From the NCBI GenBank assembly GCA_965203325.1, contig OZ241875.1, positions 4,290,702 through 4,354,701 on the forward strand: DNA of 64,000 nt, written 5' to 3'. Source of the stretch: a bacterium (GTDB taxonomy: Bacteria > UBA8248). Made by a program: the position numbers and the translations under genes. How positions within the stretch are numbered: position 1 is the stretch's first letter; the number at the start of each line of letters is the position of its first letter. Shown here piece by piece: positions 15,901-28,151 of this stretch. The notes under the pieces were generated by a model. The model did no database searches. It was not told where the DNA came from and saw only the letters and a program-made list of their open reading frames with translations.

Positions 15901-18312
15901 ATGTCGATAAATTCCATTCCTGAAACATTGGAAATTCCGGTCGAGGGCATGTCGTGCGCGGCATGTTCCGCGCGGCTGGAAAAACGGCTTGGCGCGCTCG
16001 ACGGCGTATTGCGCGCGAACGTGAATCTGGCGCTCGCGCGCGCGCAGGTCGAGTTCGTTCCCGCCCAGGTCACGCCCGCCGACATCACCAAAAGAGTAGA
16101 GAAGACCGGGTTCCGCGTTCCGCATTCTCACGTCGAGTTCACGATAGAAGGGGTGGCGAGCGCGGCGGATGCCGTTGGCCTGGAGGAGCAATTAAGCGTG
16201 CTCGATGGCGTCGTCTCCGCTGGCGTGGACCTCTCGAAGGCCCAAGGCCGTGTCGAGTTCCAGCCGGCCATCACTCACGCCGATGAGATTTTGAATTATG
16301 TGGCCAGGGCGGGATATTCGACCCGCCCGGTGATGGATGAGGAACAGGATACGGAGAAACTGAAACGAGAGCGCGAATTCAGGAAAAGCGTACGTCTGCT
16401 CGTGCTCTCAGCGGTTTTGTCCGCACCGCTGCTCTTCCAGATGGCCGGGATGATACCGGGCGCCGGGGGCTGGGAGTTGCCCAGGTGGTGGCAGTTCGCG
16501 CTCGCCACGCCCGTGCAGTTCATCGTGGGCTGGCGGTTCTACCGGGGCGCGTATCATTCGCTCATGGGCGGCGGCGCGAACATGGACGTTCTCGTTGCTC
16601 TGGGTACGAGCGCGGCCTGGCTGCACAGCAGCGTGGTGACGCTAATGGGTTTGAGCGGGCATCATGTGTATTTCGAGGCGTCCGCGGTTCTGATCACGCT
16701 CATCGTGCTCGGAAAGGTGCTCGAAGAGCGTGCCATGGGACGAACTTCAGAGGCTATCAAGAAACTCATGGGCCTTCAGGCGAAGACGGCGCGGGTGCTC
16801 CGCGACGGAGAAGAGCGCGAGGTTCCCGTGGGCGAGGTTCGCGTGAACGACGTCGTGATGGTGCGCCCGGGTGAGAAATACCCCGTGGACGGTATCATCC
16901 TTGAGGGCATGACTTCCGCCGATGAATCCATGCTGACGGGCGAGAGCGTGCCCGTGGCGAAAGGTGTGGACGACGCGGTCACCGGGGCCACGCTCAACAT
17001 CGACGGGGCGGTGACGTTCCGGGCCACCAAGGTGGGAAAAGATACGGTGCTCGCGCAGATCATTCGCATGGTGGAGCAGGCGCAGGGCTCCAAGGCGCCG
17101 ATTCAGCGCACCGCGGACAGGGTTTCGGGCATATTCGTGCCCATCGTGCTGGGAATCGCCCTCGTCACATACATTCTTTGGGACTTTATGGGGCCGTTCA
17201 CGCCCGCGCTCATCAACGCCGTCGCCGTTTTGGTCATCGCCTGTCCGTGCGCCCTGGGATTAGCGACGCCGACAGCCATCATGGTGGGCACCGGGAAAGG
17301 AGCTGAGGCCGGGGTTTTGATCAAGGGCGGCGAATCTCTGGAGACGGCGCACAGGCTCGACGCCGTCATTTTGGATAAAACGGGCACGCTGACCAAGGGG
17401 TCGCCCGTGGTGACAGATATTTTGCCGCTGAGCGGACTCTCCCAAGAGGAGTTGCTCAGGCTCGCGGCGAGCGCGGAGCGGGGTTCTGAGCATCCGCTGG
17501 GCAAATCGATAGTCGATGAGGCGGGGGCGCGAGGCGTTGAATTGCTCGAGATGCGGGATTTTCGCGCTTTTCCGGGGCATGGCCTGGAAGCGGAGGTGGG
17601 AGGGCGGAAAATTTATCTGGGCAACGAGAAGTTCATGGCGGAGCGTGGTGTGGACGCGCCCGGGTCTGTCGATGAGATTCGCCGCTTCGAATCGGAGGGG
17701 AAAACAGTGGTCCTCGTCGCCGATGACGGGGGCCTGCTGGGCGTCATCGGCGTTGCCGATTCCTTGAGGGAAAACTCGGCGGAAGCGGTTGCGGCTCTTC
17801 AGGGCATGGGAATCGAGGTCTACATGTTGACGGGCGACAACGAGCGCACGGCGCAAACCATAGCGGCCGAAGCGGGCATTTCCCACGTGATGGCGGACGT
17901 GATGCCGGATGAAAAGGCGGCGATGGTGCAACAGCTTAAACGAGAAGGCAAAAAGGTGGGCATGGTGGGTGACGGCATCAACGACGCCCCGGCGTTGGCC
18001 GCCGCTGACGTGGGCTTCGCGATCGGCTCGGGCACGGATATCGCGATGGAGGCGTCGGACATCACGCTGATGCAGGGCGATCTGATGGGCGTCGTGGCGG
18101 GAATTCACCTCTCAAAGACCGTGTTGAGGAAAATTCGCCAGAACCTTTTCTGGGCGTTTTTCTACAACATTCTCGGCATTCCTCTCGCGGCGTTCGGATT
18201 CTTGAGCCCCATCGTCGCGGGGGCGGCCATGGCGTTCAGTTCCGTATCCGTCGTCTCGAACACCTTGTTGCTCAGAAACTGGAAGCCCGCTCGTTCGAGG
18301 AGTGCGGGCTAG
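15901..18312 (+). CDS. copA: Copper-translocating P1B-type ATPase
   Basis: 803 aa. N-terminal HMA domain with [14 protein letters not shown] second HMA-like domain lacks CxxC ([18 protein letters not shown]). TM CPC motif ([12 protein letters not shown]), [19 protein letters not shown]. Confidence 0.9.
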
Positions 18313-18368
18313 ATTCGGGGTGCAGGCTTAAGCCCTCAGTGACTCGATTTTTCTTGGAGAAACATGAA

Positions 18369-18575
18369 ATGGCCAAAATGGAGATAATCGTAGGTGGGAT
18401 GAGTTGCGGGATGTGCCAATCGGCAGTCCAGGAGGCGTTAAGTGGTGTGGAAGGTGTGGCCGAAGCCGCCGTCGATCTGGAAGGGGGCAGGGCGACTGTC
18501 GTTTTCGATGAGGGGAAGACAAACCTCGACGCAATGCGCGCCGCCGTTGAAGACGCCGGATTTGATGCAGAATAA
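18369..18575 (+). CDS. copZ: Copper chaperone, HMA domain
   Basis: MAKMEIIVGGMSCGMCQSAV... ferredoxin-like HMA fold with MxCxxC. RBS GGAGA lies 10 nt upstream of ATG 18369; the track ORF starts earlier at GTG 18339. Confidence 0.8.
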   Translation: MAKMEIIVGGMSCGMCQSAVQEALSGVEGVAEAAVDLEGGRATVVFDEGKTNLDAMRAAVEDAGFDAE

Positions 18576-21125: not shown

Positions 21126-21287
21126 TCAGCGGCCCCCATTGATGAGTTCGATGAAGGTGTCGATAATTCCGTTGTCATAGAGCGTCCACGCCGTTACCAC
21201 GACGACGAGCACGAGAACGCTCAGGAGCAGATATTCGAGAAGCCCGTGTTTGACGGCGGCGGGTTTTCTGGGATTTCTTTTCGCCAT
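21126..21287 (-). CDS. Possible small membrane protein (53 aa), hypothetical
   Basis: Minus-strand ORF MAKRNPRKPAAVKHGLLEYLLLSVLVLVVVVTAWTLYDNGIIDTFIELINGGR with one TM helix and GC3-rich codons. Shorter than the track threshold; no strong RBS. Confidence 0.25.
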   Translation of the reverse strand: MAKRNPRKPAAVKHGLLEYLLLSVLVLVVVVTAWTLYDNGIIDTFIELINGGR

Positions 21288-21474
21288 ACGTTGGTTTCTC
21301 GGCGCCTGGATGGAATGCGGGGCGAGTTTGTTGCTGAATTATAAACGCAATTCCCCGCTGGTGAAAGCCGAAATAAACGCGATGGAAGTTTGAATAGACA
21401 AGGGTGGGACATCCGTTTATGGTATACCGATCACGAGCCGTCTCATCATCGCATTGCGGAGTTTTACATCTCAC

Positions 21475-22053
21475 ATGGATTCTGCCAGACATAATTTCGG
21501 CGAAGTCGAAAAAATAAGAACCGAAGCGATAGGTGTCGCAGGAAAGAGGATTTTCCGCATTCTGATCGATTGCCCGACGAAGTCGGCCGCCACGCTTTGG
21601 CTGGAGAAGGAACAGGTCTATGGTCTTTCGATGGCGATGAAGAAGATGGTGGAGGCGAAAGGGCAGGAGGAACGTTCGAGCGAGGAGCCGGATTTTCCCG
21701 ATATCGCCGAGGTCGGCTCTGCTCCCGTGAGTTCCGGAGGGTTACTCGAATTCAAAGTGAGCCGATTGGGGCTGGCGTATGGTCCGGGCAAGAGCCGCGT
21801 TACGGTCTTTTTTTACGATGAACGAGATGAGGTCGCCTCCGAGGGGGAATCTTCCGAAGAAGAGGAATACGAAGAAGAAGCCGTCGGCCCCGCCGCTTTG
21901 CAGGTGAGTCTCGCGCATGCGCAGTTGGATGAATTCATCAACCAAAGCCTCAATGAATGTTCCTCCGGGCGGGGGACGGATGCACTCTCTCATCACGCCA
22001 TGGTGGCTACCGGCAAGGTCGACCCCAATACGAACGGGCATTTTCGTCATTAA
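21475..22053 (+). CDS. DUF3090-family protein
   Basis: HNFGEVEKIRTEAIGVAGKRIFRILIDCPT... followed by an acidic stretch (SEGESSEEEEYEEE). Resembles the conserved DUF3090 family that pairs with SCO1664-family genes; from memory. ATG 21475 is in frame with track ORF 21454. Confidence 0.6.
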   Translation: MDSARHNFGEVEKIRTEAIGVAGKRIFRILIDCPTKSAATLWLEKEQVYGLSMAMKKMVEAKGQEERSSEEPDFPDIAEVGSAPVSSGGLLEFKVSRLGLAYGPGKSRVTVFFYDERDEVASEGESSEEEEYEEEAVGPAALQVSLAHAQLDEFINQSLNECSSGRGTDALSHHAMVATGKVDPNTNGHFRH

Positions 22054-22085
22054 ATCGCCCTTTTTCTATTCGGCAGGAATATCTC

Positions 22086-22871
22086 GTGGCCCGGAAATTC
22101 TCTCCTCTTGAAGGCCCCGAAACGGTGGATGCGGCCGAATCGCAAGCCTATCGCTTCGAACCGGCGGAAATCGAAAATCTTTTGCTCAACTCGGAAATTC
22201 TGGGCGGTGAGTTGGTGCCGCAAGGCTCGAACTACACGTTCGCCGTGAGGATGAGTGCGGAGGATTTCCAGTTCTGGGGGATATACAAGCCTGCGAGCGG
22301 GGAGAGGCCATTATGGGATTTTCCTTACGGAACGCTCCATTTTCGTGAGAGGTGCTCTTTTCTGGTGAGTCATCATCTGGGATGGCACCTCGTTCCTCCG
22401 ACGGTGATCCGTGAAGGCCCGCACGGGGAGGGTTCCATGCAGTTGTGCGTGCCCTATGACGGAAAATCGAACTATTTCACGCTCCGCGCAGAGGAGCGTC
22501 CGGAACTGGTGCTGATCGCGGCCTTCGACATTATGGTGAACAATACGGATCGCAAGGGCGGCCATTGCTTCAAATCCGAAGACGGCCGCGTTTGGGGAAT
22601 CGATCACGGCCTCACGTTTCATGCGGAACCCAAGCTGCGAACCGTCATCTGGGACTATGCGGGCGTTTCCCTGCCCGAAGCGCAGTTGAACGACGTAAAA
22701 AGGCTGGAGGACAGCCTGCGCGATAGCGATAGCTCTTTAAGGCGTGAGATGGACGAACTTCTGGAGCCCGAGGAAGTGGAAATTTTTCTGGAAAGGGTGA
22801 TTCGCTTTCGAAAAAATCCGTGCCTGCCGACGCCCGAAGAGTACCGGCGTCTGCACTGGCATTTCGAATAG
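22086..22871 (+). CDS. SCO1664-family protein (PI3/PI4-kinase-like catalytic fold)
   Basis: GTG start with AGGAA RBS, 32 nt after the DUF3090 stop. Motifs DIMVNNTDRKGGHCF and GIDHGLTF resemble the catalytic/activation loops of PI3/4-kinase-like proteins. Confidence 0.6.
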   Translation: MARKFSPLEGPETVDAAESQAYRFEPAEIENLLLNSEILGGELVPQGSNYTFAVRMSAEDFQFWGIYKPASGERPLWDFPYGTLHFRERCSFLVSHHLGWHLVPPTVIREGPHGEGSMQLCVPYDGKSNYFTLRAEERPELVLIAAFDIMVNNTDRKGGHCFKSEDGRVWGIDHGLTFHAEPKLRTVIWDYAGVSLPEAQLNDVKRLEDSLRDSDSSLRREMDELLEPEEVEIFLERVIRFRKNPCLPTPEEYRRLHWHFE

Positions 22872-22916: not shown

Positions 22917-24233
22917 ATGAGGACCCATACGAACCTGGCCGGGAATCGGTTGTTTTTCTTTCTTCTCTGCTTCATTCTCGGCTCGACGCTCGTCGGGTGC
23001 CCGGAGACTTCGCGCGTGCGCAGGAGGGCGCCGCGCGATGTGATGAACGAAAAACGCTGGTTTGTTCACGACAACCCCGATCATCCACAATCGAAGGTAT
23101 TTCTGGCGGAACTCGATGAGTTTGATTTTGAGCGGGCTACACGAAGGCACACGGCCCTCGCTTACAAAAAGTATCTCGAATATCATTTTACCGGCAAATA
23201 CTTTCGCCGGGCGCGCTATTGGCGGGAGCGGTTGCTGTATCAGGAAGCGCTCGAATCGAAAGAACCCGGCGCCCTCGAAGAGTTCCTGAAGCGCTTTCCT
23301 GAAGGCTGGTTCGAGACACCCTCCGGCGCAGATATCCAAAAGAGTGAGTATGAAGTACTGAGAGAAAAAGACGAGGTCGCATCCTACAGGGCGTTTATTG
23401 AAAAATACGAAAAGGCGCGGAGTGAGTGGACCGAAGCGGCGACCCAGCGCCTCGAAAGACTCCTGCTCGACGCGGCGAAAGCCTCAGGAAGTGTTCTCGG
23501 CCTCGAAAGGTTCGCTTTCGACAATCCCACCAGCCCGTATCTCGAAGAGGCGAAGGGCGCTTTGCGCGCGGTGAGGTTCGAGAGGGCGATGCGATCCGGG
23601 AAGGAGGTGGACTGGAAAGCCTTTGTTCGCAGATTCGAAGGCTCGAAAGAGGCCGCCCTCATGCGGCAGCACATGGAGACGCGGGCGCTCGAAGGGGCCG
23701 AGCGCTCGGGCCGCGTCGCTGCGCTCGAGCAATTTATCGTGCGCTATCCCGATTCGGTTCACAAAGAGCGAATCCTCTCCTCCATCAACAAGATGGCGCA
23801 GGAGAGGAATCAACAAGTCCATCGGTGGGTGCGCGTCGAGAGCGCCGAAGTCGAAGTGTTAAGGAAGCCCAGATGCAAATCGTGCAGGTCCTATCTGCGC
23901 GCCCAAGGCGTGTTGCTCAACACAGACCCCGATTTTTCCTTCGATGTGGGGCTGCAGGTCGAACTCATCCGAAACGGGAAAAAATGCTGCCGCACCAGGC
24001 ACTGGCTCAGAGGGTTGCGGCCCGGGGAGAGCCGCCCGTTTTCATTCCCGCTACGCGGAAAATCACCCAAAAGAGGCAGCCCCGCTCCCCGGTATGAATT
24101 CGAAGTGATATCCGGCTCTGCATATCGGAACCCGCAGGAGGAGCGGGTGATGGAAATCGAAGGTTTGGGTGGAAGAGGCAAGGGCCCCCAAAGCGATCGG
24201 TTCGCGCCCGTCCGGGTTCCCGATCTGAATTAG
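22917..24233 (+). CDS. Hypothetical lipoprotein
   Basis: Signal peptide with lipobox (ILGSTLVGC), 438 aa, charged helical regions and a C-terminal Cys-rich segment (CKSCRS...KKCCRTRHW). No family recognised. Confidence 0.55.
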   Translation: MRTHTNLAGNRLFFFLLCFILGSTLVGCPETSRVRRRAPRDVMNEKRWFVHDNPDHPQSKVFLAELDEFDFERATRRHTALAYKKYLEYHFTGKYFRRARYWRERLLYQEALESKEPGALEEFLKRFPEGWFETPSGADIQKSEYEVLREKDEVASYRAFIEKYEKARSEWTEAATQRLERLLLDAAKASGSVLGLERFAFDNPTSPYLEEAKGALRAVRFERAMRSGKEVDWKAFVRRFEGSKEAALMRQHMETRALEGAERSGRVAALEQFIVRYPDSVHKERILSSINKMAQERNQQVHRWVRVESAEVEVLRKPRCKSCRSYLRAQGVLLNTDPDFSFDVGLQVELIRNGKKCCRTRHWLRGLRPGESRPFSFPLRGKSPKRGSPAPRYEFEVISGSAYRNPQEERVMEIEGLGGRGKGPQSDRFAPVRVPDLN

Positions 24234-24309: not shown

Positions 24310-25212
24310 CTAGCGATTCTTGCGCCCGAGTCTGCGCCGGTTCACTTTCTTGATGTGTTTCGCGATGTAATTCACGAGGGCGGGGTTGCCGATAAGCAGT
24401 GATTGCCGCCATTTGCGCGCGGCGTCCAGGTCTTTGGGCGTGTTCTTCCCGGAGAAGAAGGTATCCAGCTCACGCCACTTGTTCGTGCGGTCGCGCCGGG
24501 CGAGCGTGATGCCCCCCGCTTCTTTCACGATGACGGCGCCCGCCGCCACGTCCCAGATGCTGGGAACGCCGAAGAGCGTATAGTGCAGGCCTCCGCGCGC
24601 TACGAGGGCCTGTTCGTAACACATGGAACCCGTGGCGCGCACTTCGCCCAGGTTCTTCTTGAGGGGTCCCGTGGGGCGGAATTGCGTCCAGTAGGAACCG
24701 GGAAGCGCGACGATGCGCTTTCCCGTGGGTTTCTCCTCTCCCGCCACCTCGATTCGGTGCTTGTTGCGATACGCGCCGCCCCCCTCGTAAGCGTGGTAGA
24801 TGGTGCCTTTGCCCTCCGGCGTGAATATGGCGCCCGCAATCGAACGGCCGCGCCTCAAGACTCCCACCGAACAGCCCCATACGTGCAGTCCGTTCAGGAA
24901 ATTTTTCGTGCCGTCCAGAGGGTCCAGGACCCACAGGTACTCGGGCACCTCGCGCGCGCCCTGTTCTTTGGCCTCTTCTTCGTCTTCGGGCTTCTCTTCG
25001 CCCAGGACGCCGTGCGCCGGAAATTTTTCGTTTATCGCTTTCGTGAGAAACTCCTGGCTCGCGCGGTCGGCTTCGCTCACCGGGTCGGTTTCGGCCTTGT
25101 TCTTGTAGTCCACCTCCACCTGCTTGCCGAAAAGCCCCATCAGGATCTCTCCCGCCTCGCGGGCGAATCTGGAAGCGGCTTCGGCCAATTCGTGAGGAGT
25201 AGGGTCGCTCAT
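24310..25212 (-). CDS. Inositol-monophosphatase-family phosphatase (SuhB/CysQ-like)
   Basis: EEKPEDEE...WVLDPLDGTKNF (DPxDGT metal-binding motif) and WDVAAG C-terminal motif. Overlaps the upstream gene by 4 nt. Confidence 0.8.
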   Translation of the reverse strand: MSDPTPHELAEAASRFAREAGEILMGLFGKQVEVDYKNKAETDPVSEADRASQEFLTKAINEKFPAHGVLGEEKPEDEEEAKEQGAREVPEYLWVLDPLDGTKNFLNGLHVWGCSVGVLRRGRSIAGAIFTPEGKGTIYHAYEGGGAYRNKHRIEVAGEEKPTGKRIVALPGSYWTQFRPTGPLKKNLGEVRATGSMCYEQALVARGGLHYTLFGVPSIWDVAAGAVIVKEAGGITLARRDRTNKWRELDTFFSGKNTPKDLDAARKWRQSLLIGNPALVNYIAKHIKKVNRRRLGRKNR

Positions 25213-26258
25213 TCTCCACGCTCCAGCGGAGGGAGGTCGAGCCTTTGGGCGATCTCATCGAGTTCCGCGAGCCGCTCGCTCGACAGCTCGAACCCGCTTT
25301 CCCGGCGTTCCATCTCGTTTTGATGCTCGATCTCTCCGGGCATGAAAATCGTCTCCACACCCGCCGCTTTCGGTGTGGTTTTGATGATGGAGATGAAGGC
25401 GCCGGCGGCGGCCTGGAATTGCGATACCGGAAGCAGCGCCTCGACGTTGATGGCGACGAAAACGCTTGTGACACGGCTTTTCCCGTGAAATTCGTTGATG
25501 CCCACGATCTCGTGGCTGTGGCCTCCGCCCGCGAGGGAACCCAGAATGGCGTCGATCGCGATGGAAAGCCCGCTGCCCTTGTAGCCCGCAATCGGGGAGA
25601 GGAGGGAGCTTTCGAGAACCTCGTGGGGGTCGGTGGTGGGTCTTCCCTCCTTGTCCAGCCCCCAGCCCTCGGGGATGAGTTCGCCCGCGCGCGCCGCCTC
25701 GATGATGTAGCCCCGGGCCACAACGGAGAGCGCCATGTCCAGCACCATGGGCGGGTCGCTCGGCAGGGCGATAGAGACGGGATTGTTGCCGATCCTGGGT
25801 TCCTTGCCTCCTGCAGGAGGCAGGACGCGCAGCGTGTTCGTCGTAACGAGGCCGACCATGCCGGCTTCGGGGGCCATGGCCGCGTACGTTGCGGCGGCGC
25901 CGAAATGGTTGCTCTCCTTGAGCAGGACGACGCCCACGTTATGGAGCCGCGCGCGGTCGATGGCCTCTTCCATCGCGAGCCTGGAGACCACCTGGCCCAT
26001 GCCGTTGTCGCCGTCTGCGAGCGCGAGTGCGCCTGCGTCTTTGACGACTTTGAAATTGGGAGCCGGATTCGCCAGATTGATTTCCAGGCGCCTGGCGTAG
26101 TGCGGCATGCGGATCACGCCGTGGCTGGTGACGCCGCGCAACTCGGCCGTCACGAGCGTATCCGCCGTCCATGCGGCGTCCTCATCCGGCATGCCCAGCT
26201 TGCTGAAGACTCGCTCTAAAAACACGTGGAGTTTATCGCCCGTCGTGTGTCCGCTCAT
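25209..26258 (-). CDS. Ldh2-family (malate/L-lactate/sulfolactate dehydrogenase type 2) oxidoreductase, paralog A
   Basis: 349 aa. TAELRGVTSHGVIRMPHY and SNHFGAAATYA match the Ldh_2 (Mdh/AllD/ComC) family. Confidence 0.8.
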   Translation of the reverse strand: MSGHTTGDKLHVFLERVFSKLGMPDEDAAWTADTLVTAELRGVTSHGVIRMPHYARRLEINLANPAPNFKVVKDAGALALADGDNGMGQVVSRLAMEEAIDRARLHNVGVVLLKESNHFGAAATYAAMAPEAGMVGLVTTNTLRVLPPAGGKEPRIGNNPVSIALPSDPPMVLDMALSVVARGYIIEAARAGELIPEGWGLDKEGRPTTDPHEVLESSLLSPIAGYKGSGLSIAIDAILGSLAGGGHSHEIVGINEFHGKSRVTSVFVAINVEALLPVSQFQAAAGAFISIIKTTPKAAGVETIFMPGEIEHQNEMERRESGFELSSERLAELDEIAQRLDLPPLERGE

Positions 26259-26873
26259 TCACTCCTCACGCGTGAACAGATAGGCCATCCCGTGCCGGAC
26301 GTGCGCACCCGAATCGACCTCGCTCAGAAAATCGACTCGCGAAACCGACCAGCGGTTCACTTCGCTCAACTCTCGCATGCTCCAACCGGGGGCGTCCCAC
26401 AGCGCTTCGCTCCCGGCATAGCCCGGCCCTTGCTGCACCACCGCCAGGTACCAGCGGATGCTCATCGCCTCCAATATCTGTCGTTCGGCGCCCGAATCGA
26501 ACGGCAGCCAGCAGGAGAACACGAAATCAGGCGCATGGGCGAGGAGCGCCTCCTGCGCGTCCAGGGCTTCGGTACCCTCGCCTCCGGCCGGGTCCGTGAG
26601 TCTCAGGTTCACGCCGCGCGCCTGAAGCGCTTTTCCGATCGTGCCGTCGCCGGCCCCCGCTTCCAGAGGCGCTTCGGGAGCTAACCCTAAGATTTCCTCT
26701 GCCAGTGCGTCCAGCCATTCGACCACGGGAAGCTGGTAGAGGTTTTTCCTCTCGCAGAATACGAGCCAGCCGTCCCCCCGTTCTTCTTCGGCGAGCTTAG
26801 CGATGGCCTCGGCGTAGGGGAGGGGTTTCACCGCCGAAAATCCCGGGCGAGAAACCGGGTCGCCTGCAAGCAA
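26259..26873 (-). CDS. Hypothetical protein, possible class-I SAM-dependent methyltransferase
   Basis: 204 aa with a Gly-rich LEAGAGDGTIGKAL motif (motif-I-like). Weak assignment. Confidence 0.4.
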   Translation of the reverse strand: MLAGDPVSRPGFSAVKPLPYAEAIAKLAEEERGDGWLVFCERKNLYQLPVVEWLDALAEEILGLAPEAPLEAGAGDGTIGKALQARGVNLRLTDPAGGEGTEALDAQEALLAHAPDFVFSCWLPFDSGAERQILEAMSIRWYLAVVQQGPGYAGSEALWDAPGWSMRELSEVNRWSVSRVDFLSEVDSGAHVRHGMAYLFTREE

Positions 26874-26942
26874 GAATTCACCCGCAACCCTGTAAGAAAC
26901 AAACCCCCGGAAATCATCTTCCGGGGGCTGGTGATGAATCTC

Positions 26943-28151
26943 CTAGACGCTGGGCCCATTCCTGTTGATGGCGAAGGCGTTGTCCTCATACAGGATTTCG
27001 GCTTTCGTCATCTTCCCGCTCGCGACTTCGAGCACCTCGTCGTAGACGCGACGTCCGGCCACCTCGATGGGCGCGCCCTCGAAGATGTCCGTCACATCCA
27101 CGTCGGTGGTGTCGGCCTGAAGCCTCGCTGAAAGCGGGTTGCCCGTGATGCGGATGGTGCTCATCAGGGGGTGGTTGATGGTATGGCCGCCGCCCGTGGA
27201 GAAGATGAGCACCTGAGAGCCGCCCGCCGCGATGCCGGTGATGGACTCGCCCCCGTGGCCGGGGGTGTCCATCACGTGGAGGCCGCTCCTGCGGTTCGCG
27301 CGCTTCGCCCAGGGGATCACGTCCACGATGGGGGCCGAGCCCGCCTTCTGGATGGCGCCCAGGGATTTCTCTTCGATCGTGGTCAGGCCGCCCTCCATGT
27401 TGTCGCCCGTGGGCTGGCTGCCCCTGAGATCCACGCCGCAGGCGAGGATGCGCTCTTCCATCTCCTCCACCATCCTCCAGATGCGCTTGCCCAGGGCCGG
27501 CCTCACGCATTTGGCGGCCAGTACGTCCTCGCCGCCCATCATCTCCGTGGTCTCGGCCAAAAGCACGCGTCCGCCCTGATTGACCACCTGGTCCGTCACC
27601 CAGCCGGTGGCCTTGTTGTGCGAGAGGCCCGAGGTAGTGTCCGACGTTCCGCAGTTGACCCCCAACAGGAGCTTGCTCACGGAAACTTCCTGGCGGCGTT
27701 CGTTCGTGAGTTCTCTCAGCATCTCCATGCCGATGCGCGTGGCCTTGGCGGTGGCGTCTATCGCGCCGCCGTCTTCGCGGATGTTGATCGCTTCCACGCG
27801 TTTCCCTGTTTTGGCGATTTCATGGGCGATCTCGTCCGCCGTGCAGCCTTCCTCGCGGTGGTGGTCGATGACAATGACGGCGCCTGCGTTGGCGTTCTGC
27901 CCGTGTCCGACGAGGGTTTCGAACGTGCGCTGAATGTCGGGGCCGATCTGACAGCGTCCCAGCGGGTGGGTGAGGGCGACGCTATGCCGAAGGGTTCTGG
28001 CTACACGCTCGCATGTGGAGTTCGCATAAAGCGTTCCGCTCAACAAGAGCAGGTAGTTTCTCGCGCCCACGTCGCCGTTCTCTCTGGGATATCCCCACCA
28101 GGTTTTTCTCAGACGTTTCGATCTTGCGCCGCTTCCGTTTCTTCTGGCCAT
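26943..28151 (-). CDS. UxaA/GarD-family dehydratase large subunit; SuyB-like ((2R)-sulfolactate sulfo-lyase large subunit candidate)
   Basis: 402 aa. YPRENGDVGARNYLLLLSGT at the N-terminus plus the C-terminal altronate/galactarate dehydratase-like domain. Size matches SuyB (~42 kDa). Confidence 0.7.
   Translation of the reverse strand: MARRNGSGARSKRLRKTWWGYPRENGDVGARNYLLLLSGTLYANSTCERVARTLRHSVALTHPLGRCQIGPDIQRTFETLVGHGQNANAGAVIVIDHHREEGCTADEIAHEIAKTGKRVEAINIREDGGAIDATAKATRIGMEMLRELTNERRQEVSVSKLLLGVNCGTSDTTSGLSHNKATGWVTDQVVNQGGRVLLAETTEMMGGEDVLAAKCVRPALGKRIWRMVEEMEERILACGVDLRGSQPTGDNMEGGLTTIEEKSLGAIQKAGSAPIVDVIPWAKRANRRSGLHVMDTPGHGGESITGIAAGGSQVLIFSTGGGHTINHPLMSTIRITGNPLSARLQADTTDVDVTDIFEGAPIEVAGRRVYDEVLEVASGKMTKAEILYEDNAFAINRNGPSV

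Follow-up and report, generated by a model that had tools for sequence, protein, structure and literature searches.

The question raised by positions 21,475 to 22,871 of the stretch of contig OZ241875.1 analysed here (64,000 nt, below called the window) is what two adjoining genes, a DUF3090 gene (gene A) and an SCO1664-family gene (gene B), do in a bacterium outside the Actinobacteria. Gene B is predicted to be a kinase of atypical fold, gene A belongs to a form of its family that lacks the zinc knuckle, and a phosphatase gene, not of the same family in all lineages, lies beside the pair. The answer put forward here, tentatively and at somewhat less than an even chance, is a two-subunit atypical kinase with a metabolite or head-group substrate and an interchangeable phosphatase.

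The gene pair

The pair consists of the following genes.

21475..22053, plus strand: gene A, DUF3090 protein, ATG start, 192 amino acids, Cys-less (zinc-free) Nitrospinota/Tectomicrobia subfamily

22086..22871, plus strand: gene B, SCO1664-family protein, predicted atypical kinase, GTG start, 261 amino acids

Both open reading frames (ORFs) are found exactly where the initial annotation had placed them, on the same strand and with a spacer of 32 nt (22054-22085). An AGGA is located 8 nt 5' of the GTG of gene B, and the chosen starts fit the lengths of the orthologs P0001 (261 amino acids) and P0121 (192 amino acids). The two family assignments made from the sequence were right. Gene A passes Pfam PF11290, DUF3090 (61.7 bits, gathering 27, E 1e-16), and gene B passes NCBIfam TIGR03843, the SCO1664 family (252 bits, cut-off 172.4, E 5.6e-75). 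Of the hidden Markov models proposed for checking the pair, only TIGR03847 was missed, with 54 bits for gene A against a cut-off of 117.25. The DUF3090 and SCO1664-family pair is confirmed as genuine and is far beyond a chance match.

The terminator scan found none between A and B and none after B, and the promoter and terminator scans gave a signal no better than that of shuffled sequence. A search of 20.0-25.5 kb for regulatory RNAs gave nothing at E <= 0.1.

Distribution and inheritance

Relatives of gene B were sought in one genome per species; 237 were found and 80 loci were kept. The 22 closest loci, with 77-99% identity, come from metagenome-assembled genomes (MAGs) labelled Nitrospinota, Nitrospinaceae or 'bacterium', several of them sponge-associated as judged from isolate names. 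The other kept loci, with 40-54% identity, belong to Chloroflexota (Anaerolineae, Dehalococcoidia and Chloroflexia) and to two Pleurocapsa cyanobacteria. A protein search with gene B gave at least 7,953 related clusters at 90% identity, and the DUF3090 search gave the same taxon pattern. NCBI already uses the name 'SCO1664 family protein' in Nitrospinota, Nitrospinaceae, Tectomicrobia and Chloroflexota, and 'DUF3090 family protein' for gene A. The pair is thus widespread across Nitrospinota, Chloroflexota and other phyla and is not restricted to Actinobacteria.

The gene order is conserved. All 22 Nitrospinota-type loci (22/22) have a short-chain dehydrogenase/reductase (SDR) gene, an alpha/beta-hydrolase gene, A, B, a gene of 438 amino acids and, on the other strand, an inositol-monophosphatase-family (IMPase-family) gene. 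The same order extends over about 14 kb, including Ldh_2 and UxaA-like genes, in a marine metagenome contig (L081) whose gene B is 57-59% identical. Gene A is found 0-100 nt upstream of B on the same strand at 24 of 24 Nitrospinota-type loci and at most of the others. In the gene B tree, a neighbour-joining tree without bootstrap, the Nitrospinota sequences form a single clade, and its sister group comprises a few Chloroflexota loci with the same architecture. The GC content of the pair, 0.565, lies in the range found in the window (0.563-0.640).

The window belongs to a Nitrospinota MAG lineage, in which A and B are an ordinary gene pair, vertically inherited in a broadly distributed clade. 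The pair had initially been described as standing outside its usual actinobacterial context, with phylogeny as a check for horizontal acquisition. The analysis gave the opposite result, a single Nitrospinota clade with synteny kept and normal GC, and the pair is common in Nitrospinota, Chloroflexota, Tectomicrobia and some cyanobacteria. Vertical inheritance in a broad clade had been named beforehand as the result that would refute the reading of an unusual context, and that reading is not supported.

The kinase-like fold of gene B

Gene B contains the motifs NNTDRKGGHCF and GIDHGLTF, so that the DRKGGHCF and DHG elements pointed out from the sequence are kept. In an alignment of 72 gene B homologues K68 (in IYKP), D155, R156, K157, H160, D173 and G175 are invariant. 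The AlphaFold2 model of gene B has a predicted local distance difference test score (pLDDT) of 88 and a predicted template-modelling score of 0.87. The top Foldseek match in the PDB is human type II phosphatidylinositol (PI) 4-kinase alpha, PI4KII-alpha (4hne; E 1.6e-8, probability 1.00, template-modelling score (TM) 0.59-0.60), followed by PI4KII-beta and Fam20A/Fam20C, by the HipA-like CtkA, and then by VPS34, RIO and PRPK. When PDB sequences were searched with a profile, FAM20A came out on top (E 0.0045) and PI4K2B was also matched (E 0.048). The FAM20A alignment spans the catalytic loop, the DHG segment and the C-terminal helices, and the gene B segments YKPxxGERP and NNxDRKGGH...DHG correspond in the alignment to the catalytic loop of Fam20 and to the PI4KII region. 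Because the lysine, the catalytic aspartate and the metal-binding aspartate are all intact, gene B is predicted to be a minimal atypical kinase with a type II PI 4-kinase/Fam20-like fold, and it presumably has kinase activity. The label 'PI3/4-kinase-like' given to it earlier holds for the fold, which is like that of type II PI 4-kinases, but the gathering score of PF00454 is not reached (13.5 bits, gathering 27.1, E 0.07, catalytic loop only). Some gene B homologues have precomputed PF00454 matches.

The best structural match, to PI4KII-alpha and PI4KII-beta (4hne, 4wtv), includes the ATP-lysine strand (FKP/YKP), the NxDRxxx[NH] catalytic loop and the D[NH]G metal-binding motif. Unlike these enzymes, gene B is about 100 residues smaller, is without palmitoylation or membrane insertion, scores below PF00454 and has a small, obligate-looking partner gene; the identity is 17-18%. 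The Fam20A/B/C proteins, with the top profile match and a Foldseek TM of 0.55-0.58, differ from gene B in that the latter is cytosolic and bacterial, without signal peptide or disulfides, and has a partner that is not a pseudokinase. In this family a non-catalytic partner activates Fam20C, and sugars are the substrates of Fam20B. The HipA/HipT-HipS systems and CtkA are likewise atypical kinases in fold and have a small partner gene upstream, but gene B has no HipA family match and is a conserved core gene, not a mobile toxin module.

Gene A and the zinc knuckle

The model of gene A (AlphaFold2, pLDDT 77.6) has the topology bbbba + bb(a)ba and ends in a tail modelled with low confidence. Foldseek matched it most consistently to PURA repeat I-II, though not significantly (TM 0.4-0.52, E 0.1-1.4), and hhalign of the two halves (b4-a1 against b-a2) gave a weak internal-repeat signal (E 0.0015, 17% probability). 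As two modelled bbbba-type units, gene A resembles the PUR-alpha repeat (Whirly-like bbbba) fold; it differs in being acidic and not basic, and there is no evidence of nucleic-acid binding.

In 77 diverse DUF3090 proteins the positions G20, G23, R25, F27, A39, W42, E44, K45, G165 and R166 are invariant. No Ser, Thr, Tyr or His is invariant in this alignment, and gene A is therefore unlikely to be a phospho-acceptor of the usual site-specific kind. Window gene A carries an acidic, Ser-rich loop, SEGESSEEEEYEEE; among DUF3090 homologues this loop varies in length and is often without hydroxyl residues.

DUF3090 has been described as 'CxxC..HxC', a putative metal-binding protein (PMC9425974). This is true for only a part of the family. 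In window gene A the canonical GRPxCPLCxxPxxPxGHxCPRxNGH is replaced by GRGTDALSHHAMVATGKVDPNTNGH, the Cys, Cys, His and Cys being changed to Asp, Ser, Lys and Asp both here and throughout its clade. The Cys-less form is strongly conserved, from the window clade to Tectomicrobia and marine Nitrospinaceae. The replacement of the knuckle explains the low TIGR03847 scores, which are 45-60 bits in the Cys-less clade versus 125-168 in canonical Chloroflexota. Among the 83 loci carrying gene B that the census covers, the state of gene A is as follows.

19/83 loci: canonical knuckle, GRPxCPLCxxPxxPxGHxCPRxNGH

24/83 loci: knuckle deleted, GRPD-PKQNGRLVYYWT, in Anaerolineae and cyanobacteria

23/83 loci: Nitrospinota form, GRGTDALSRxAMVATGKVDPNxNGHFxH

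16/83 loci: no gene A within reach

One Nitrospinota MAG locus (L021, 7402-7731) is unclassified in the census; its gene A is split or truncated, with two model matches and a product of 109 amino acids, probably as a result of a frameshift or an assembly error. The zinc knuckle has been lost at least twice in DUF3090 and therefore cannot be the essential feature. The search for clade-specific residues of gene B that might co-vary with the loss gave 17 scattered positions and no cluster.

Phosphatase genes beside the pair

The phosphatase-family gene next to the pair in the window is the following.

24310..25212, minus strand: IMPase-family gene, PF00459 163.9 bits, convergent to the A-B unit

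Its product is below the cut-offs of the HisN, CysQ and SuhB-type models, and it matches the characterised structures of these enzymes and of IMPase no better than E 5e-26 (range 1e-14 to 5e-26). The IMPase genes found beside B, which are convergent to it in Nitrospinota, Chloroflexota and four further metagenome loci, are 35-51% identical to each other and, over the full length, to the window copy. Since this mutual identity contrasts with the distant characterised structures, the IMPase genes beside B form a dedicated subfamily. A convergent IMPase gene is located 25-131 nt from B in six Chloroflexota loci (L024, L030, L039, L053, L076 and L078), and an IMPase-family gene lies 1.3-2.5 kb from B in two others (L032 and L048). 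The genes downstream of the IMPase gene vary and include Ldh_2 in the window, PfkB in L089 and transglutaminase in L086 and L088, with none in L085; the constant feature of these IMPase-family genes is adjacency to B.

Most Chloroflexota loci have an operon with a histidine phosphatase gene followed by A and B. The phosphatase passes TIGR03848, the 'MSMEG_4193 family' (216 bits, cut-off 203.85), and these loci therefore carry the actinobacterial three-gene cassette. No TIGR03848 phosphatase was found in the 64-kb window by tblastn with 24 cassette phosphatases, and the TIGR03848 histidine phosphatase is present at 0 of 24 Nitrospinota-type loci. Among the 58 non-Nitrospinota loci an IMPase gene is found in 0 of 33 with a histidine phosphatase versus 8 of 25 without one (Fisher p = 5.6e-4). 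Seven further loci from other assemblies had either the IMPase gene only (four loci) or the histidine phosphatase only (three loci). The histidine phosphatase and the IMPase-family gene never co-occur at the B loci examined, and we propose that the IMPase-family gene functionally replaces the TIGR03848 histidine phosphatase of the cassette.

Downstream of the IMPase-family gene are an Ldh_2-family dehydrogenase gene (25209-26258, minus strand), a gene of 204 amino acids and a UxaA/GD_AH-type dehydratase gene (26943-28151). The minus-strand block 24310-28151 resembles an operon of sugar-acid type, and the marine contig L081 has kept it.

Comparison with the actinobacterial cassette

The cassette TIGR03848 - TIGR03847 - TIGR03843 is what we take, by gene order, to be Rv2135c-Rv2134c-Rv2133c of Mycobacterium tuberculosis, located by cysQ and mshC, with Rv2135c presumably as its TIGR03848 member. 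Rv2135c has been reported to be a weak, non-specific acid phosphatase on small phosphoesters, without phosphoglycerate mutase activity (PMC3866925). The literature search gave no functional study of DUF3090 or SCO1664 proteins, only screen listings and the paper on the Rv2135c phosphatase, in agreement with the initial remark that the function of the pair is not established.

The window resembles the cassette in that gene B passes TIGR03843, a DUF3090 gene is directly upstream on the same strand and a phosphatase gene adjoins the pair. It differs by having the convergent IMPase-family gene instead of a TIGR03848 gene, by a gene A without the Cys-Cys-His-Cys knuckle and under the TIGR03847 cut-off, by an extra lipoprotein gene after B and by the lack of a nearby mshC (15.9-28.1 kb). 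The mycothiol link that had been suggested for the pair is on record for Actinobacteria, where SCO1664 has been noted as invariably linked to mshC (PMC4255298), but it does not extend to this locus: no mshC-like or other thiol-biosynthesis gene was found at 15.9-28.1 kb of the window. The family itself was already known and recognised in Nitrospinota by public annotation. The variant found here combines the zinc-free DUF3090 subfamily, the loss of TIGR03848, the dedicated convergent IMPase gene and the added lipoprotein gene.

Proposed mechanism and alternatives

In the two-subunit kinase model the locus would be the Nitrospinota version of an ancient cassette passed down vertically and present in several phyla, and gene B would be an active ATP-dependent phosphotransferase with a minimal type II PI 4-kinase/Fam20-like fold. 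Gene A would be its co-translated, non-catalytic partner, which may bind or activate the kinase or present the substrate. It would not itself be a Ser/Thr/Tyr substrate of B, and its zinc knuckle would be dispensable, with polar residues in its place here. The product of B would most likely be a small molecule or lipid head group that has been phosphorylated, for example on an inositol-, sugar- or ribosyl-type hydroxyl. The phosphatase encoded beside the pair would hydrolyse this product or a later compound, and would be of the TIGR03848 histidine type in Actinobacteria and most Chloroflexota and of the IMPase family in the window clade. Family membership, fold, catalytic residues, variant motifs, gene linkage, the exchange of phosphatases and the vertical distribution are observations; kinase activity, the A-B complex and the substrate class are what we infer from the comparisons.

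The genes that abut or overlap the pair in other lineages are metabolic enzymes, which counts in favour of this model. A phosphoribosyl pyrophosphate synthetase gene overlaps the start of A in L085, and NUDIX, metallophosphoesterase and 5'-nucleotidase genes are frequent beside the pair in Anaerolineae. In two Chloroflexota loci with B and without DUF3090, L032 (8711-9979) and L048 (8690-10027), the stop of B overlaps the start of a DUF1537-type gene; the four-carbon acid-sugar kinase-like gene of L032 has D-threonate kinase as its best NCBIfam match (166 bits, below cut-off). B is also found without DUF3090 in a Tectimicrobiota contig (L083, JBFWSV010000052.1, 786-7777), where a class V aminotransferase gene ends 13 nt before it. 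At this locus an MshB/Mca-like PIG-L deacetylase gene is located 3.5 kb from B (TIGR03445, 225 bits versus a cut-off of 224), and a two-domain GNAT gene and an actinobacterial-type HIT ATP adenylyltransferase-like gene are within 5 kb. This neighbourhood may be a hint that a thiol pathway similar to that of mycothiol exists in bacteria other than Actinobacteria.

Several points weigh against the two-subunit kinase model. No biochemical characterisation of A or B family members was found in the literature search. A kinase and a phosphatase acting on one metabolite would form a futile cycle, so the phosphatase may instead act on a later intermediate, or A and B may have a regulatory role. Metabolite kinases do not usually have an obligate small protein partner, which is commoner in protein-level regulation, and B stands without A at 16 of the 83 loci. 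The mutual exclusion of the two phosphatases tracks the B phylogeny and so goes back to few independent events. In the window the IMPase gene, which lies on the strand opposite A-B, has a 4-nt overlap with the downstream Ldh_2 gene; this indicates that it is transcribed with another operon. Neither phosphatase is within reach at A-B loci such as L057, L060, L062, L063, L067 and L073.

The main rival to a metabolite kinase is a protein-phosphorylation switch, in which B would be a protein kinase, A its substrate, adaptor or inhibitor, as in HipS-HipT and Fam20A-Fam20C, and the phosphatase would reset the system. We regard it as somewhat unlikely. The tight linkage of A and B fits a switch, as do the protein kinases Fam20C and CtkA, and RIO and PRPK with their small partners, among the structural neighbours of B. 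The histidine-phosphatase superfamily includes some protein phosphatases, and window A offers both the Ser-rich loop SEGESSEEEEYEEE and an invariant Trp in the LWLEKEQ motif. However, A has no invariant residue that could accept the phosphate (Ser, Thr, Tyr or His), its loop is not constant in length and often misses hydroxyl residues, IMPase-family enzymes are small-molecule phosphatases, the operon partners are metabolic enzymes and not signalling proteins, and a switch has to account for the same 16 of 83 loci where A is missing. A lipid-kinase reading, a sub-case that is quite improbable in our view, is that B acts on the head group of a membrane lipid (phosphatidylinositol or polyprenol) with A as a lipid- or membrane-targeting subunit. 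Inositol lipids are not known to be general in Nitrospinota or Chloroflexota; gene B has no membrane-binding segment, and Fam20 and CtkA resemble it almost as closely as do the PI4KII enzymes. The latter are nevertheless the best structural matches (E 1.6e-8, TM up to 0.60), there is a weak PF00454 signal, and the inositol-monophosphatase-family neighbour fits an inositol theme. The mycobacterial cassette phosphatase is moreover membrane-associated and its gene lies beside an undecaprenyl-pyrophosphate phosphatase gene (PMC3866925).

The remaining alternatives concern the origin and the type of the system, and both were rejected as extremely improbable. That a mycothiol-linked pair was recently acquired from Actinobacteria by horizontal transfer could be thought because the TIGRFAM models are built on Actinobacteria, because of the SCO1664-mshC link in the literature (PMC4255298) and because the Tectimicrobiota locus has its MshB/Mca-like deacetylase gene 3.5 kb from a B homologue. 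Such a transfer does not agree with the synteny in Nitrospinota, kept down to 57% identity, with the single Nitrospinota clade or with the nearest outgroups, which are Chloroflexota at 40-54% identity and not Actinobacteria. Nor does it agree with a gene A that is highly diverged yet conserved within its own clade, with the normal GC content or with the result that there are no thiol-biosynthesis genes at 15.9-28.1 kb; synteny, clade structure and GC content were decisive. A HipA-type toxin-antitoxin or defence module, with a kinase toxin and a small antitoxin encoded upstream, would account for the small gene before the kinase gene and for the HipA-like CtkA among the structural neighbours. 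It was discarded since the pair has no HipA match in Pfam or NCBIfam, only 14 bits (E 0.0045) in PADLOC, and phylum-wide synteny; the pair is chromosomal and vertically inherited and has no mobile-element neighbours.

Other genes in the neighbourhood

The gene directly after B is the following.

22917..24233, plus strand: lipoprotein-like repeat protein, 438 amino acids

The N-terminus of the protein (…LGSTLVGC) is like that of a lipoprotein, and its interior contains TPR-like repeats. Its gene follows B on the same strand in the 22 Nitrospinota loci and in L081, and it is restricted to that Nitrospinota group. No match was found in Pfam, NCBIfam or the PDB, and its homologues comprise a few orthologous clusters and then a tail of repeat-containing proteins. 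The gene is probably co-transcribed with B; a functional link is unproven.

Within 15.9-28.1 kb of the window the genes before A encode a Cu-ATPase, CopZ, a flavin reductase, an SDR and an alpha/beta-hydrolase, and those after B the lipoprotein, the IMPase-family protein, Ldh_2 and the UxaA-like protein. The copper-translocating P-type ATPase (15901-18575, plus strand, 803 amino acids) has two N-terminal CxxC metal-binding domains and is followed by a CopZ-like metallochaperone of 78 amino acids.

An unlisted ORF of 53 amino acids, MAKRNPRKPAAVKHGLLEYLLLSVLVLVVVVTAWTLYDNGIIDTFIELINGGR, is located at 21127-21288 on the minus strand, divergent from gene A. Its N-terminal end is basic, and a single transmembrane helix is predicted. 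By tblastn, counterparts occupy this position in 21 Nitrospinota loci (70-98% identity) and in L081 and L082, both marine contigs (50% identity over 34 amino acids). The longer ORFs listed at 21127-21288 on both strands are probably shadows of it.

Proteins with WWD motifs, CcmF-like at about 45275 and CcmC-like at about 49843 (both plus strand), are present in the window. The Ccm System I context that had been assigned to this genome is plausible as far as these CcmF/CcmC-type motifs go. A simple pattern search did not find the HDExY motif of CcmE.

Implications for the family

The presence of the pair in this lineage is unsurprising to a specialist; the comparative pattern is useful for experiments on the actinobacterial cassette. 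Actinobacteria, M. tuberculosis among them, carry the pair in a conserved 'signature' cassette, and the phosphatase that goes with the pair can be of two kinds, a CobC-like histidine phosphatase or a dedicated enzyme of the IMPase family. The spread outside Actinobacteria, the loss of the knuckle and the alternative phosphatases together speak against a role specific to mycothiol and favour a substrate of the phospho-metabolite or head-group type.

The most far-reaching formulation is that a conserved two-subunit kinase and a swappable phosphatase cycle an inositol-, ribosyl- or sugar-type metabolite or a lipid head group, this bacterial system being the prokaryotic relative of the eukaryotic type II PI 4-kinases. 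In this full form the proposal is unlikely. If true, the Nitrospinota form, zinc-free and partnered by an IMPase, would narrow the candidate substrates, and it would give a handle on the function of Rv2133c-Rv2135c in M. tuberculosis.

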